Below, one piece after another: positions 10,896 to 11,977 of a stretch of 54,562 nt of DNA. The stretch spans positions 1 through 54,562 of IMG/VR virus record IMGVR_UViG_2568526722_000002; one strand, written 5' to 3'. The DNA comes from a virus. Its lineage: Duplodnaviria > Heunggongvirae > Uroviricota > Caudoviricetes. The notes beneath the pieces are model-generated. The model had not been told where the DNA came from, did not search any database, and was given only the letters and a program-made list of their open reading frames with translations. Both the position numbers and the translations under genes were made by a program. The first letter of the stretch is position 1; the number at the start of each line of letters is the position of its first letter.

Positions 10896-11120
10896 CGGTT
10901 ACGCCGCCGAGGTATCGATACAATTGTGTTATGTGGGATCTCGACCAATATCGGTGTTGAATCCACCGCCCGCAATGCCTGGGAACTTGGCTTTAATCTG
11001 GTGATTGCCGAAGACGCCTGTAGTGCCGCCAGCGCCGAGCAACACAATAACAGCATTAATCATATCTACCCGCGCATCGCCCGTGTGCGTAGCGTGGAAG
11101 AGATCCTTCACGCGTTATGA
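10896..11120 (+). pseudogene. 3' fragment of an isochorismatase-family hydrolase gene (YecD-like C-terminus)
   Basis: Frame opens after a stop at 10854-10856 and encodes [41 protein letters not shown]...; the N-terminal ~110 codons are absent. Confidence 0.6.
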
Positions 11121-11219
11121 TTTACATCGGTCTGCCGCAATGGTCGCATCCTAAATGGGTGCGGTTGGGGATCACCAGCCTTGAAGAGTATGCCCGCCAC
11201 TTTAACTGCGTGACGCGGT
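11117..11219 (+). pseudogene. 5' fragment (33 codons) of a DUF72/YecE-like gene
   Basis: ATG overlaps the upstream stop (ATGA); encodes [32 protein letters not shown] then terminates. Confidence 0.45.
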
Positions 11220-11383
11220 AAATTTAAAAATCGACAAATATCGTCCAGGAGCGCCATTTTTAATGGCTGGAGATAGCATCCAATATACGTTGTTTGCAAT
11301 GTTTGGCGAAATTCAATGATTTCTCATGCCCCACCCATGCCCCAAGACGCCTGACACGCGAAATCTTCCACAAATTACTGCAA

Positions 11384-11734
11384 CTAAACAACCGCGTTAT
11401 CTTGGCGAACATCGCAGATAGTAAACGTCACGACCCCGATGACAGTGACATCGTCCAGGGCCTCACCTTCAATCGCTTCGCCGTCTTCAGTAATCAGCGA
11501 ACGCCCTCTCAACGTGGCAAGTTCGGTCCCGCCGCCGTGCTGGATAAGAACCTGGCTTCCCTGCTTTGGCTTCAGGGAGATATCCAGCACAACATAACCG
11601 CCATCCCTTTCGAAAACGCGGGTGTTCGGCCCGACATTGCATATCGAGTTAACGGACAGTCGCTGCTCGACGTAGTCGGACGCCGGTGAAGGAAATCCCA
11701 TTACAGAACCCTCCCCATGTTGGCCATCATCCAC
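11384..11734 (-). CDS. UmuD/ImpA-like protein, probably degenerate
   Basis: GFPSPASDYVEQRLSVN matches the UmuD N-terminal region (GFPSPAADYVEQRIDLN); the expected Ser nucleophile block is replaced (RDGGYV) and no umuC-like gene follows. Confidence 0.5.
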   Translation of the reverse strand: MDDGQHGEGSVMGFPSPASDYVEQRLSVNSICNVGPNTRVFERDGGYVVLDISLKPKQGSQVLIQHGGGTELATLRGRSLITEDGEAIEGEALDDVTVIGVVTFTICDVRQDNAVV

Positions 11735-11940
11735 AAACGGTTTTCGCTATGGTCGGTGGTTTTGTCGACAAAGTACGTCTGCTCTCTAGATATCCACGCA
11801 TTAGCCTCTGAGTCGGTAAAGTGCAGCCCACGCCGGCGCAGCGCTGACACAAAATCCTTTGTGTGCAGGTACTGGTAGCCTTTGGAGTTGCGCAATACCG
11901 ACTCGCGGAATGCCTGATTGATGTCTGACTGACGGTGCAT
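11701..11940 (-). CDS. small LexA-regulated protein upstream of the umuD-like gene (impC-like arrangement)
   Basis: 79-aa internal start of track ORF 11701-12093; ATG at 11940 preceded by GGAGG and by a LexA box. Confidence 0.45.
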   Translation of the reverse strand: MHRQSDINQAFRESVLRNSKGYQYLHTKDFVSALRRRGLHFTDSEANAWISREQTYFVDKTTDHSENRLWMMANMGRVL

Positions 11941-11957
11941 GATCTGCCTCCGATTGA

Positions 11958-11977
11958 TACTGTTTTTATATACAGCA
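11958..11977. promoter_or_regulatory. LexA (SOS) box
   Basis: TACTGTTTTTATATACAGCA fits CTGT-N8-ACAG, located ~20 bp upstream of the small ORF start. Confidence 0.65.

Follow-up and report, generated by a model that had tools for sequence, protein, structure and literature searches.

Captured yecD-yecE DNA ending at an orphan yecE-type attachment core, next to a predicted LexA-controlled gene pair, in a prophage with the phi80 integrase

Phages of the lambda gal/bio type carry out specialised transduction, which results from aberrant excision. In phage P1, HumD is reportedly able to complement UmuD' and to bind both UmuC and RecA filaments, as ascribed to McLenigan et al. in 1999. HumD is LexA-controlled and is annotated in the P1 record as complementing UmuD'. 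Phage phi80 uses the 3' end of yciI as its attB (PMC13449921), and the yecD homology near its attP undergoes recombination with the host at a rate of 6e-7 per phage, which has been used experimentally (PMC3945230). Cores derived from yecE and located inside prophages are known integration targets, which receive Stx phages (Nakamura et al. 2021, PMC8112680). The published sites of this kind lie in PPompW-type prophages and are homologous to yecE over about 100 bp, with 87% identity (PMC8112680).

The window, that is, the whole 54,562-nucleotide stretch of DNA that was analysed, contained an integrase identical to phi80 Int in 397 of 397 residues (100%). A phi80-type att core, aligned to the annotated attP core of phi80, marked the boundary between bacterial and phage DNA, and phage identity to the phi80 genome began at approximately 10007. 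The host genes flanking the prophage were tonB and yciI, not aspS; the other copy of att80 would lie outside the window. Going inward from this boundary by about 0.9 kb, a Pin-type invertase, a tail-fibre stub and 314 bp of host DNA were encountered in sequence. The features of the region, including those beyond the host DNA, were as follows.

10004-10020, no strand: phi80-type att core, in the 3' end of yciI (9633-10025).
10144-10692, minus strand: Pin-family serine DNA invertase (PinL homologue), 182 aa, with Pfam Resolvase and HTH_7 matches; apparently intact.
10698-10724, no strand: inverted repeat "IR3" of the phi80 annotation, CTTCTCCTGTT-GTAAA-AACAGGAGAAG, the same as the phi80 features.
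10756-10777, minus strand: single Pin/Hin-type crossover-like site, TTCTCCCAAACCAACCTTTCAA.
10769-10906, plus strand: tail-fibre variable-segment stub, 138 bp, the first ~46 codons of a 136-aa gp53-like/tail-collar ORF, with PHROG tail-fibre matches.
10899-10906, no strand: putative illegitimate junction with 8-bp microhomology, TTACGCCG, common to the tail-fibre gene and yecD in a three-way alignment.
10899-11120, plus strand: yecD', the 3' end of host yecD (codons 113-188 and the stop), from K-12 alignment and Pfam.
11117-11212, plus strand: yecE' (DUF72), the first 32 codons of host yecE; the K-12 yecE alignment stops at 11212.
11192-11212, no strand: 21-bp common core of the att site of yecE-integrating phages, GCCCGCCACTTTAACTGCGTG; orphan attL-type B-O-P' junction.
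11213-11383, no strand: P' arm of a yecE-type phage attachment region, identical to the arm of the JNQH497 prophage.
11384-11701, minus strand: "mini-UmuD'" gene, 105 aa, matching phrog_3469 over positions 1-103 of 106, i.e. over its full length.
11701-11940, minus strand: 79-aa partner gene, matching phrog_3893 over positions 1-79 of 79.
11958-11977, no strand: LexA box, TACTGTTTTTATATACAGCA, consensus with 0 mismatches, 17 bp upstream of the 79-aa ORF.

The left part of this region was shared with phi80. The module of pinL, fibre stub, yecD' and yecE' had the same breakpoints in both, with 98% identity and 0 indels across 9495-11252. In the phi80/Lula record (JX871397), the integrase (100%), the position of the att core in yciI, PinL (99%), IR3, the fibre stub, the 8-bp join and the yecD'-yecE' piece (1 mismatch in 314 bp) were all in common with the window. 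The yecE-type core was shared as well, and just past it both elements had a LexA-controlled SOS gene; in phi80, a LexA site was predicted at the equivalent place, ahead of dinL. The two differed past 11219, where the window carried another P' arm and another cargo, consisting of the 79-aa gene and mini-UmuD', whereas phi80 carried dinL. Similarity to phi80 ended by 11252, and the phi80 structural genes (siphovirus tail, cor, dinL) were absent. The head and tail set of the window was of the myovirus type and from a yecE phage, whereas phi80 has siphovirus genes. Since the structural genes matched a yecE myovirus-type prophage and not phi80, the window is a mosaic and not phi80 itself. According to the alignments, a prophage with the phi80 integrase occupies the phi80 site in yciI, and the region forms the accessory part at its att-proximal end.

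The original prediction, made from the letters of the DNA, described the 3' end of an isochorismatase-family gene opening at about 10896, followed by the 5' end of a DUF72 gene, and both fragments were confirmed. The host-derived piece comprised 314 bp (10899-11212), corresponding to yecD codons 113-188 and yecE codons 1-32. In the frame 10884-11120, the Pfam Isochorismatase match covered only profile positions 107-175 of 175, the C-terminal part, and identity to K-12 yecD started at approximately 10899, at codon 113 of 188. The yecE frame (11117-11221) read 32 codons as in K-12 yecE and then T-R-stop; in the phi80 annotation, it is a DUF72 N-terminal-fragment pseudogene. Identity to K-12 yecD-yecE was 96.6% across 10890-11212. 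The captured copy had private SNPs, T at 10925 and G at 11134, which were found in 0 of the 3 host copies examined.

Host identity stopped at 11212, and identity to the attP of the free phage RothC began at 11192. The 21 bp between these positions were common to K-12 yecE and RothC attP, i.e. to attB and attP; they also flanked the JNQH497 yecE prophage on both sides and are annotated in Stx phages as "duplication due to insertion". On the left side of the core lay the contiguous yecD-yecE host arm, and on its right side the phage P' arm (11213-11383), which resembled the right arm of RothC attP and departed from phi80 from 11219 on. The same core, with host sequence to its left and a P' arm with adjoining cargo to its right, characterises the attL of yecE phages (Stx1/Stx2 phages, the JNQH497 prophage and, for its attP, Klebsiella phage RothC). 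In contrast to those sites, the host arm in the window was only 314 bp long and was joined to phage DNA, attR and a cognate integrase were lacking, and the element was located at yciI, not yecE. The only end-integrase in the window was phi80 Int, and neither a matching attR core nor a yecE-type integrase accompanied it.

The fragments had initially been attributed, as one possibility, to an att-associated duplication of host sequence, and an explanation by duplication of the prophage's own att after integration into yecD/yecE was considered here. It would account for a fragment whose end coincides exactly with a genuine phage att core and which lies within 1.2 kb of the prophage end. However, the boundary was the phi80 core in yciI with an integrase that was entirely that of phi80, the flanks were tonB and yciI rather than aspS, and the fragment was also part of the phi80 and mEp237 genomes as packaged. 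A repeat of the core, which was to be looked for near the integrase end, was not found, as the yecE core was single in the window, and a repeat search of 9900-12400 gave only short chance pairs of att-like direct repeats. Duplication of the prophage's own att is thus extremely improbable in our judgement. What stood of the earlier suggestion is that host sequence was captured, in association with an att site, near a prophage end; that the site was the prophage's own did not stand. Because the host piece ends exactly at the 21-bp core of yecE phages, the sequence is best read as an orphan attL-type scar.

The left edge of the host piece, beside the invertase gene, was also studied. The fibre stub up to base 10906 was 96-99% identical to intact ORFs adjoining pinE in many genomes, and in phi80 it is annotated as an internal-fragment pseudogene (tail-collar). 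Fibre homology was perfect to 10906 and yecD homology ran from 10899, which gave the 8-bp overlap. The invertase was 99% identical to phi80 PinL. Its crossover-like site at 10756-10777, which we take to resemble hix, gix and pix sites, was the only match at up to 3 mismatches, and no partner crossover site was found in the window. The match to an invertible-segment prophage of COL60J broke off exactly at 10778.

This arrangement may be compared with lambda gal/bio-type transducing phages. As in those phages, host DNA in the window is contiguous with one att junction inside the phage genome, and its other edge is apparently an illegitimate join at short homology. The differences are that the host piece is tiny and has no function, that it was apparently joined to a fibre segment beside an invertase and not to the opposite prophage arm, and that the integration module found afterwards is that of phi80. 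Most probably, an ancestor that was integrated in yecE took 314 bp of adjoining host DNA with it when it excised, comprising the end of yecD and the start of yecE. The captured DNA would have stayed joined to the P' arm of the ancestor at the 21-bp core, giving the attL-type B-O-P' scar, and its other edge would have been joined illegitimately, at the 8 bp of microhomology, to the fibre variable segment by the Pin invertase. With this join the invertible segment would have been lost, so that only one site remained for the invertase. Today the scar is a fixed, non-coding passenger of phi80-type phages.

The same module was present in the packaged phage genomes of phi80 (97.5%) and mEp237 (99.1%), where it is annotated as pseudogene fragments. 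A 231-bp query spanning the fibre-yecD junction found the junction in 9 of 5,426 E. coli genomes, with 100% identity in 7 and 99.6% in 2; the carriers included laboratory phi80 lysogens of K-12, and in all 9 the record contained one or more additional matches to the query at other positions. Since the junction is the same in phi80 and mEp237 and base-for-base identical in 7 of the 9 genomes, it may be concluded that it arose in one old event and has been carried by phages. Repeated insertion and deletion at this prophage end, as first supposed, does not agree with this distribution. The expectation that relatives might have intact genes at this position was answered in part: yecD was intact where a related phage sits in the true yecE, while at the yciI locus all relatives carried the same fragments.

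These data also bear on a chromosomal origin, in which an inversion or translocation between a yciI prophage and a yecE prophage split the real yecD, so that the fragments would be the moved host locus. The yciI part and the yecD part do stand in the opposite relative orientation to that in K-12, the 24 kb to the right match a prophage in the true yecE, together with its host flank, at 99.1% identity, and prophage-prophage inversions have been documented (PMC8112680). Nevertheless, the fibre-yecD join was at least 99.6% identical in 9 of 9 carriers, K-12 lysogens of laboratory phi80 among them, and the module spanning it occurred in phi80 and mEp237. The additional query match in every carrier and the lack of the private SNPs from all 3 host copies examined argue likewise against a moved locus. 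After the gene orientation had been worked through, the chromosomal-inversion model was ruled out on the presence of the junction in packaged phage genomes and of a further query match in the carriers; we rate it as very improbable. The scar itself was already known and annotated in phi80, and the region overall is ordinary and mostly known.

The origin of the DNA to the right of the scar was also studied. Positions 10899-35263 (24 kb, to the terminase) were 99.1% identical to the JNQH497 yecE prophage, and positions 40010-54562 were 98-99.6% identical to the att80 prophage of COL60J. The window had the phage-specific alleles at 10925 and 11134 and sided with JNQH497 over phi80 from 11170/11219. 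These few SNPs, two phage-specific and one phi80-specific, place the crossover inside 11135-11218, within the scar. At least 4 different cargos to the right of the core were linked to the same left module. By these comparisons, the scar has also served as an exchange point, and the 24 kb to its right derive from a phage whose usual integration site is yecE.

Two routes could have produced the join: homologous recombination in the shared yecD'-yecE' sequence, or insertion by an integrase at the core carried in the prophage, with a subsequent deletion. Both predict the same left junction, and the pattern is explained equally well by homologous exchange. Under the second route, a yecE-type phage would have inserted site-specifically in the core of a resident phi80-type prophage, and a homologous deletion would then have taken the int/attR half. 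We consider this course tentatively, as having distinctly less than an even chance. The crossover interval contains the 21-bp core, yecE-phage DNA begins at that core, and several different cargos join exactly there. However, about 57 bp of the interval, to the left of the core, are plain homology, and attR, the second core and the yecE-type integrase are all missing. In addition, lambda-type integration uses attL-type sites less well than attB. In favour of insertion, the window core CCGCCACTTTAACTGCGTGAC is the reverse complement of the published 21-bp attB-in-PP_1 GTCATGCAGTTAAAGTGGCGG with 1 mismatch, and that site receives Stx phages (PMC8112680); against it, homologous recombination between phi80 and host yecD occurs at a measurable rate (PMC3945230). 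Compared with the published attB-in-prophage sites, the site in the window has 314 bp of homology at about 97% identity, includes yecD, is of the attL type and would be a candidate target of integration.

Next to the core and the P' arm, the cargo was examined. The original prediction had placed a LexA box ahead of a 79-aa ORF and a UmuD-like ORF, which proved correct, and had called the latter a remnant with an altered serine block and without a umuC partner. The stop codon of the 79-aa gene overlapped the ATG of the UmuD'-like gene (TAATG). In the window, 5 matches to the LexA box were observed versus 0.6 expected, and 5 or more were obtained in 0 of 100 shuffles. In a simple scan of 11200-12400, terminators were absent and nothing at the LexA box was convincing as a sigma-70 promoter; presumably, the box overlaps the promoter region. 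An Rfam scan of 9500-12800 at E values up to 1 returned only a chance-level viral pseudoknot match. The cargo by the core is thus predicted to be a LexA-repressed, SOS-induced two-gene operon.

The length of 105 aa for the UmuD-like ORF is that annotated in RefSeq relatives. The protein begins at the residue equivalent to Gly25 of UmuD, so that the N-terminal arm and the Cys-Gly cleavage site are absent, and the start MGFPSPA was nearly invariant in the family (M1, G2, F3, S5, P6). In alignments to UmuD and HumD, an 11-residue deletion took out the SGDSM loop with the nucleophile Ser60, in agreement with the altered block noted before. In the column of the general base Lys97, Lys was conserved in 0 of 35 family members; the loss of the Ser/Lys dyad is therefore family-wide. 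A tblastn search with UmuC found no homologue anywhere in the 54.5 kb of the window (best E = 3.7), as had been supposed, and mini-UmuD' had no Pfam match.

Taken by themselves, the missing Ser60 and Lys97 equivalents, the missing arm, the lack of umuC in the window and the lack of a Pfam match would fit a decaying umuDC-type operon that has lost umuC and the active site. The family data, however, argue against this. The mini-UmuD' family comprised 722 protein clusters and the 79-aa family 343 clusters, all of the latter labelled hypothetical; lengths of 105 aa and 79 aa were constant in these hundreds of clusters and thousands of sequences, and distant mini-UmuD' relatives (34-56% identity) had the same length. 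Both genes matched their PHROG profiles over the full length, and dN/dS was 0.04-0.15 for mini-UmuD' and 0.10-0.36 for the 79-aa gene, at dS up to 0.9. The AF2 model of mini-UmuD' was confident (pLDDT 85), and its best PDB matches were UmuD' (1ay9 and 1umu, TM 0.64-0.66), which suggests the C-terminal beta fold of LexA/UmuD. The pair also occurred in isolated phages, by attP, and the 79-aa gene adjoined UmuD'-type genes in RothC and HK140 as well. Decay is thus barely credible. Because mini-UmuD' is full-length and constant in length and has a dN/dS of 0.04-0.15, the absence of the serine characterises the whole family and does not indicate decay, and the reading as a remnant was abandoned. 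The UmuD'-like and 79-aa genes are, as judged from conservation, most likely a functional accessory pair. The anatomy, breakpoints, distribution and mosaic structure of the region, and the intactness and selection of both cargo genes, were read directly from the comparisons.

The closest described counterpart of mini-UmuD' is P1 HumD, to which it was 34% identical over 99 residues. Both begin with MGFPSPA at the UmuD cleavage point, have no umuC partner and have a LexA box upstream. They differ in that mini-UmuD' has 105 aa and HumD 129 aa; HumD keeps Ser and Lys at the catalytic columns, whereas mini-UmuD' is without the Ser60 loop and Lys97; and mini-UmuD' follows the translationally coupled 79-aa gene, whereas HumD has a divergent lxr. 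Against NCBIfam NF051876 (HumD), mini-UmuD' scored 45.1 bits at a curated cut-off of 120 bits, which makes it related to this equivalog but outside it. Mini-UmuD' has the appearance of a catalytically inert, pre-truncated mimic of UmuD'. Like HumD, it may act on the SOS and translesion partners of the host (UmuC, the RecA filament) without self-cleavage. A HumD-like function is nevertheless uncertain, since the score lies below the HumD cut-off and the loop that HumD keeps is missing. In the literature searched, nothing specific and no experimental characterisation was found for a serine-less UmuD' family in prophages; this family was common in Klebsiella and E. coli prophages.

The 79-aa protein had no Pfam or NCBIfam family, its best PDB sequence match had E = 0.7, and its AF2 model was of moderate quality (pLDDT 69). 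EF-hand-like Foldseek matches to the PDB were weak (best E = 0.9) and were disregarded. ImpC is DinI-like, and an initial reading of the 79-aa protein as a counterpart of ImpC was dropped. The biochemical roles suggested for both proteins follow from such comparisons and are provisional.

Taken together, a 314-bp host scar from a yecE-integrated ancestor, kept in phi80-type phages, together with a functional SOS operon, is a highly probable explanation of the whole region. We infer the order of events, including that of the two joins, the mechanism of exchange and the direction of transfer, i.e. whether the phi80 lineage gained the scar or the reverse. A wider and rather unlikely interpretation combines an SOS-induced phage module that redirects or blocks host translesion or RecA-filament functions with the orphan core as a docking or exchange site. 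The 105-aa mimic, without arm, Ser loop and Lys, would then be more than a plain UmuD' substitute in Pol V and would act jointly with its translationally coupled 79-aa partner; for example, it would titrate UmuC or compete with the repressor or UmuD for RecA* during prophage induction. Phages of different integration specificities would swap whole structural-gene halves via the orphan yecE core.

The odd pseudogene cluster is accordingly understood as an inherited scar of phi80-type phages and not as a strain-specific rearrangement or an att duplication. It provides a base-resolved case of captured host DNA and an orphan att core that persist in a phage lineage. The serine-less UmuD-like gene, which is easily misannotated as a pseudogene, belongs to a conserved family. 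The scar also marks the seam where an att80 phage acquired 24 kb of structural genes of a yecE phage, which is consistent with published relaxed homologous recombination and prophage-in-prophage integration.

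The annotated attP core of phi80 was found to align to positions 10004-10020 of the window, within the 3' end of yciI, and identity to the phi80 genome started there. In a published study, the phi80 attB is located within the 3' end of yciI (PMC13449921). In relatives, the yciI/prophage locus was bordered by tonB at one end and by kch at the opposite end, and the integrase encoded at the window's far end (53369-54562) was identical to phi80 Int at 397 of 397 residues. The locus is the phi80 attachment locus. The features listed in the original prediction (truncated yecD and yecE frames, LexA box, 79-aa ORF and altered UmuD-like ORF) were confirmed at their coordinates by the sequence and the ORF list. 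However, because the att80 core lies in yciI and the integrase is that of phi80, the yecD and yecE fragments are located ~0.9-1.2 kb inside a phi80-type prophage, neither at its boundary nor at the yecD-yecE locus.

A second phage-derived block with tape-measure and baseplate genes, and with another 182-aa resolvase/invertase (8382-8930), was present at 1-9500, on the opposite side of yciI; therefore, yciI has prophage DNA at both flanks. This block was 98% identical to a region of the O55:H7 strain TB182A, and in genomes such as that of E. coli B18271 tonB lay directly at its position.

The following features precede the host-derived DNA:

9633-10025, yciI, flanking the prophage
10144-10692, minus strand, Pin-family invertase (Pfam Resolvase and HTH_7; 99% identical to phi80 PinL)
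10698-10724, phi80 'IR3' hairpin
10756-10777, single Pin/Hin-type crossover-like site
10769-10906, tail-fibre variable-segment stub (PHROG tail-fibre matches)

The invertase was intact (182 aa); the annotated phi80 PinL is 10 residues shorter. Since only one crossover-like site was left, the prophage carries an intact Pin invertase without an invertible substrate. Homology to the att80 prophage of strain COL60J, which retains a complete invertible tail-fibre segment, ended exactly at this site, at 10778. Up to base 10906, the fibre stub matched, at 96-99% identity, 136-aa ORFs that adjoin pinE and are intact in many genomes, and E. coli yecD identity started at 10899. The resulting 8-bp overlap, TTACGCCG, is the hallmark of illegitimate joining at microhomology.

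The frame at 10884-11120 matched the C-terminal part only of Pfam Isochorismatase (profile positions 107-175 of 175), and the frame at 11117-11221 agreed with E. coli yecE over 32 codons before it stopped. The host-derived DNA (10899-11212) corresponded to yecD codons 113-188 and yecE codons 1-32, with 96.6% identity to K-12. Host identity ended at 11212, and from 11192 on the window was identical to the attP of RothC, a free Klebsiella phage. The 21 bp at 11192-11212 therefore constitute an att-site common core. This core was present at both ends of the prophage inserted into the true yecE in strain JNQH497. In Stx phages that have integrated at yecE, well known as one of their integration sites (PMC8112680), it carries the label 'duplication due to insertion'. 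The order of host arm, core and phage P' arm marks the junction as an attL-type one, made by a phage that integrates at yecE. A search of the window revealed neither a second yecE core nor a cognate (yecE-type) integrase, so that the junction is orphaned there. Thus, of the suggested att-associated duplication of host sequence, the capture of att-derived host DNA by a phage was borne out, but the att site is not the prophage's own (att80 core at 10004-10020, phi80 Int). Likewise, the expected core repeat exists as a real yecE core, but it has no second copy near the integrase end or elsewhere in the window.

At the true yecE locus of JNQH497 (L009, 2135-2914), it was observed that the yecE-integrating phage provides a replacement 5' end for yecE. 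The resulting 259-aa DUF72 ORF (MRMIKISKLVHHARHFNCVEG...) overlaps the integrase gene and runs into host yecE past the core, so that yecE may not be inactivated by the integration.

The module at 10030-11252, from the att80 core to just beyond the yecE core, was 99.1% identical to that of mEp237 and 97.5% identical to that of phi80. In the phi80 GenBank record, these positions bear pinL and two fragments, labelled 'internal fragment, phage tail collar domain protein (pseudogene)' and 'N-terminal fragment ... DUF72 (pseudogene)'; a LexA site and dinL come next. Phi80-host recombination at the yecD homology was reported at 6e-7 per phage by De Paepe et al. (PMC3945230). Both the phi80 annotation and the literature on phi80 already include the junction. 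When 5,426 complete E. coli genomes were screened with a 231-bp probe spanning the fibre-yecD join, nine carried it (seven at 100% and two at 99.6% identity), all nine with at least one further probe match elsewhere in the genome. In the five loci inspected (XL10-Gold, B18271, HH107, 23CRST046 and SZQ1), the join was at yciI, and fragments rather than intact genes occupied this position, as in the phi80 and mEp237 module. Two bases private to the phage-borne copy (10925 T and 11134 G) were missing from all three chromosomal copies examined. The shared module, the same junction, the private bases and the further copies indicate one old capture event, now phage-carried, and not the repeated local insertion and deletion originally proposed. 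Local duplication and strain-specific chromosomal rearrangement were also considered; both are ruled out by the same points.

The junction was present in the RefSeq genomes of two laboratory strains of E. coli, XL10-Gold (NZ_CP081008) and JCL301 (NZ_CP107281). In XL10-Gold, a K-12 derivative, it lay at the yciI locus amid phi80 genes, which is consistent with the published spread of Lula/phi80 through laboratory stocks (PMC2885432).

To the right of the yecE core, the sequence TACTGTTTTTATATACAGCA at 11958-11977 matched the LexA-box consensus without mismatches. Five LexA-box matches were observed in the window versus 0.6 expected, and none of 100 shuffles reached five. The box precedes two ORFs:

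11701-11940, minus strand, 79-aa ORF downstream of the LexA box; its stop overlaps the mini-UmuD' start (TAATG)
11384-11701, minus strand, UmuD-like ORF of 105 aa (mini-UmuD')

Two more matches were found in the early region (41401-41420 and 46026-46045), one of them fitting the palindromic consensus perfectly (TACTGTGTTTTTATACAGTA), the other with 1 mismatch. A second 79-aa ORF (12076-12315, plus strand), divergent from the box, had no Pfam, PHROG or NCBIfam match and is unannotated in the near-identical JNQH497 prophage. Since the gap at the corresponding place in RothC is only ~96 bp, it is unlikely to be a genuine gene; in P1, however, two LexA-controlled genes, lxr and humD, are arranged divergently.

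The absence of a serine block from the UmuD-like ORF and of a umuC homologue from the whole window was confirmed. However, this ORF proved to be no remnant but part of an intact gene pair. Mini-UmuD' matched positions 1-103 of 106 of phrog_3469 ('UmuD-like protein'), and its partner matched positions 1-79 of 79 of phrog_3893. In a large protein database, 722 and 343 clusters were found for mini-UmuD' and the 79-aa protein, respectively; among the best 120 matches to each, nearly all were exactly 105 or 79 aa long, mostly from Klebsiella and E. coli. A set of 1.8 billion cluster representatives contained many full-length relatives of mini-UmuD' (34-56% identity, 104-109 aa). Pairwise dN/dS between the window, B18271 and RothC was 0.04-0.15 for mini-UmuD' and 0.10-0.36 for the 79-aa gene, with dS up to 0.9. 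The pair adjoins attP in RothC, an isolated phage, and in HK140 a 79-aa homologue lies immediately upstream of a HumD-type gene, beside a putative attP.

Between the window (11384-11940) and B18271 (L002, 6686-7242), dS was 0.89 for the mini-UmuD' gene and only 0.115 for the adjacent 79-aa gene, which points to a recombination breakpoint within the operon.

In an alignment of 35 family members, the start M-G-F-x-S-P was nearly invariant and corresponded to UmuD Gly25, with which processed UmuD' begins. The SGDSM serine loop was lost in an 11-residue deletion, and the Lys97 column had no conserved lysine. Loss of the cleavage apparatus is therefore the design of the whole family, not decay. The AlphaFold model (pLDDT 85) had UmuD' structures as its top PDB matches (TM 0.64-0.66), and mini-UmuD' is predicted to be a 'pre-cleaved', catalytically inert UmuD' look-alike. 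Its closest characterised relative (34% identity) is P1 HumD, which, according to the P1 record, functionally complements UmuD' and is LexA-controlled. Unlike mini-UmuD', HumD retains Ser and Lys at UmuD Ser60 and Lys97 in the alignment. With the HumD model, whose cut-off is 120 bits, mini-UmuD' reached a score of 45; it falls outside the HumD equivalog, and its working would be HumD-type at best. For the 79-aa partner, no family, sequence or fold relatives with known function were detected. LexA cleavage in the SOS response would de-repress the operon, and the UmuD' mimic would engage UmuC and the RecA filament without needing activation.

Comparison with other prophages divided the window into blocks:

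9495-11252, phi80-like (block comparison)
10899-35263, JNQH497-like, 24.4 kb, 99.1% identical to the prophage in true yecE
40010-54562, COL60J-like, early region, RecE/RecT and Int, 98-99.6% identical to the att80 prophage

The second block starts with the host fragment and takes in the tail-fibre, baseplate, sheath and head genes, up to the terminase. Its tail-fibre region includes an SGNH/GDSL-hydrolase tail protein (13072-14916) and a divergent acyltransferase-family gene (15212-16303), which may form a module for surface-polysaccharide modification (lysogenic conversion). The interval 35263-40010 (~4.7 kb, lysis/late regulation) contains the right-hand crossover. It had no high-identity match to the JNQH497 or COL60J prophages, its sole match to them being 560 bp at 75% identity to JNQH497, and it is possibly DNA from a third source.

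SNPs in the host-derived piece followed the phi80-module alleles up to 11134 and JNQH497, not phi80, from 11170, clearly from 11219. Therefore, the exchange point lies within 11135-11218, an interval that takes in the last part of yecE', the core and the beginning of P'. Two mechanisms fit the evidence. In the first, which is given slightly more weight, the phage-borne yecD'-yecE' recombined by homology with the identical flank beside a prophage resident in yecE, as measured for phi80 (PMC3945230). Alternatively, a yecE phage was inserted by its integrase into the prophage-borne core, as demonstrated for yecE-derived 'attB-in-PP_1' sites one base off the window core (PMC8112680), and homologous deletion followed. 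However, neither attR nor a second integrase is left. An attL-type site would, moreover, be a poorer integration target than attB.

In other genomes, the left module was joined to at least four other cargos right of the core: dinL with phi80 tails, DinI with extra genes, a DinI fragment, and a 109-aa and 79-aa pair with phi80-type tails. Thus, the captured host DNA acts as a recurrent module seam. What is new here is a mosaic member, in which phi80 Int, att and early genes stand beside the structural genes of a yecE phage, and a seam resolved to the base.
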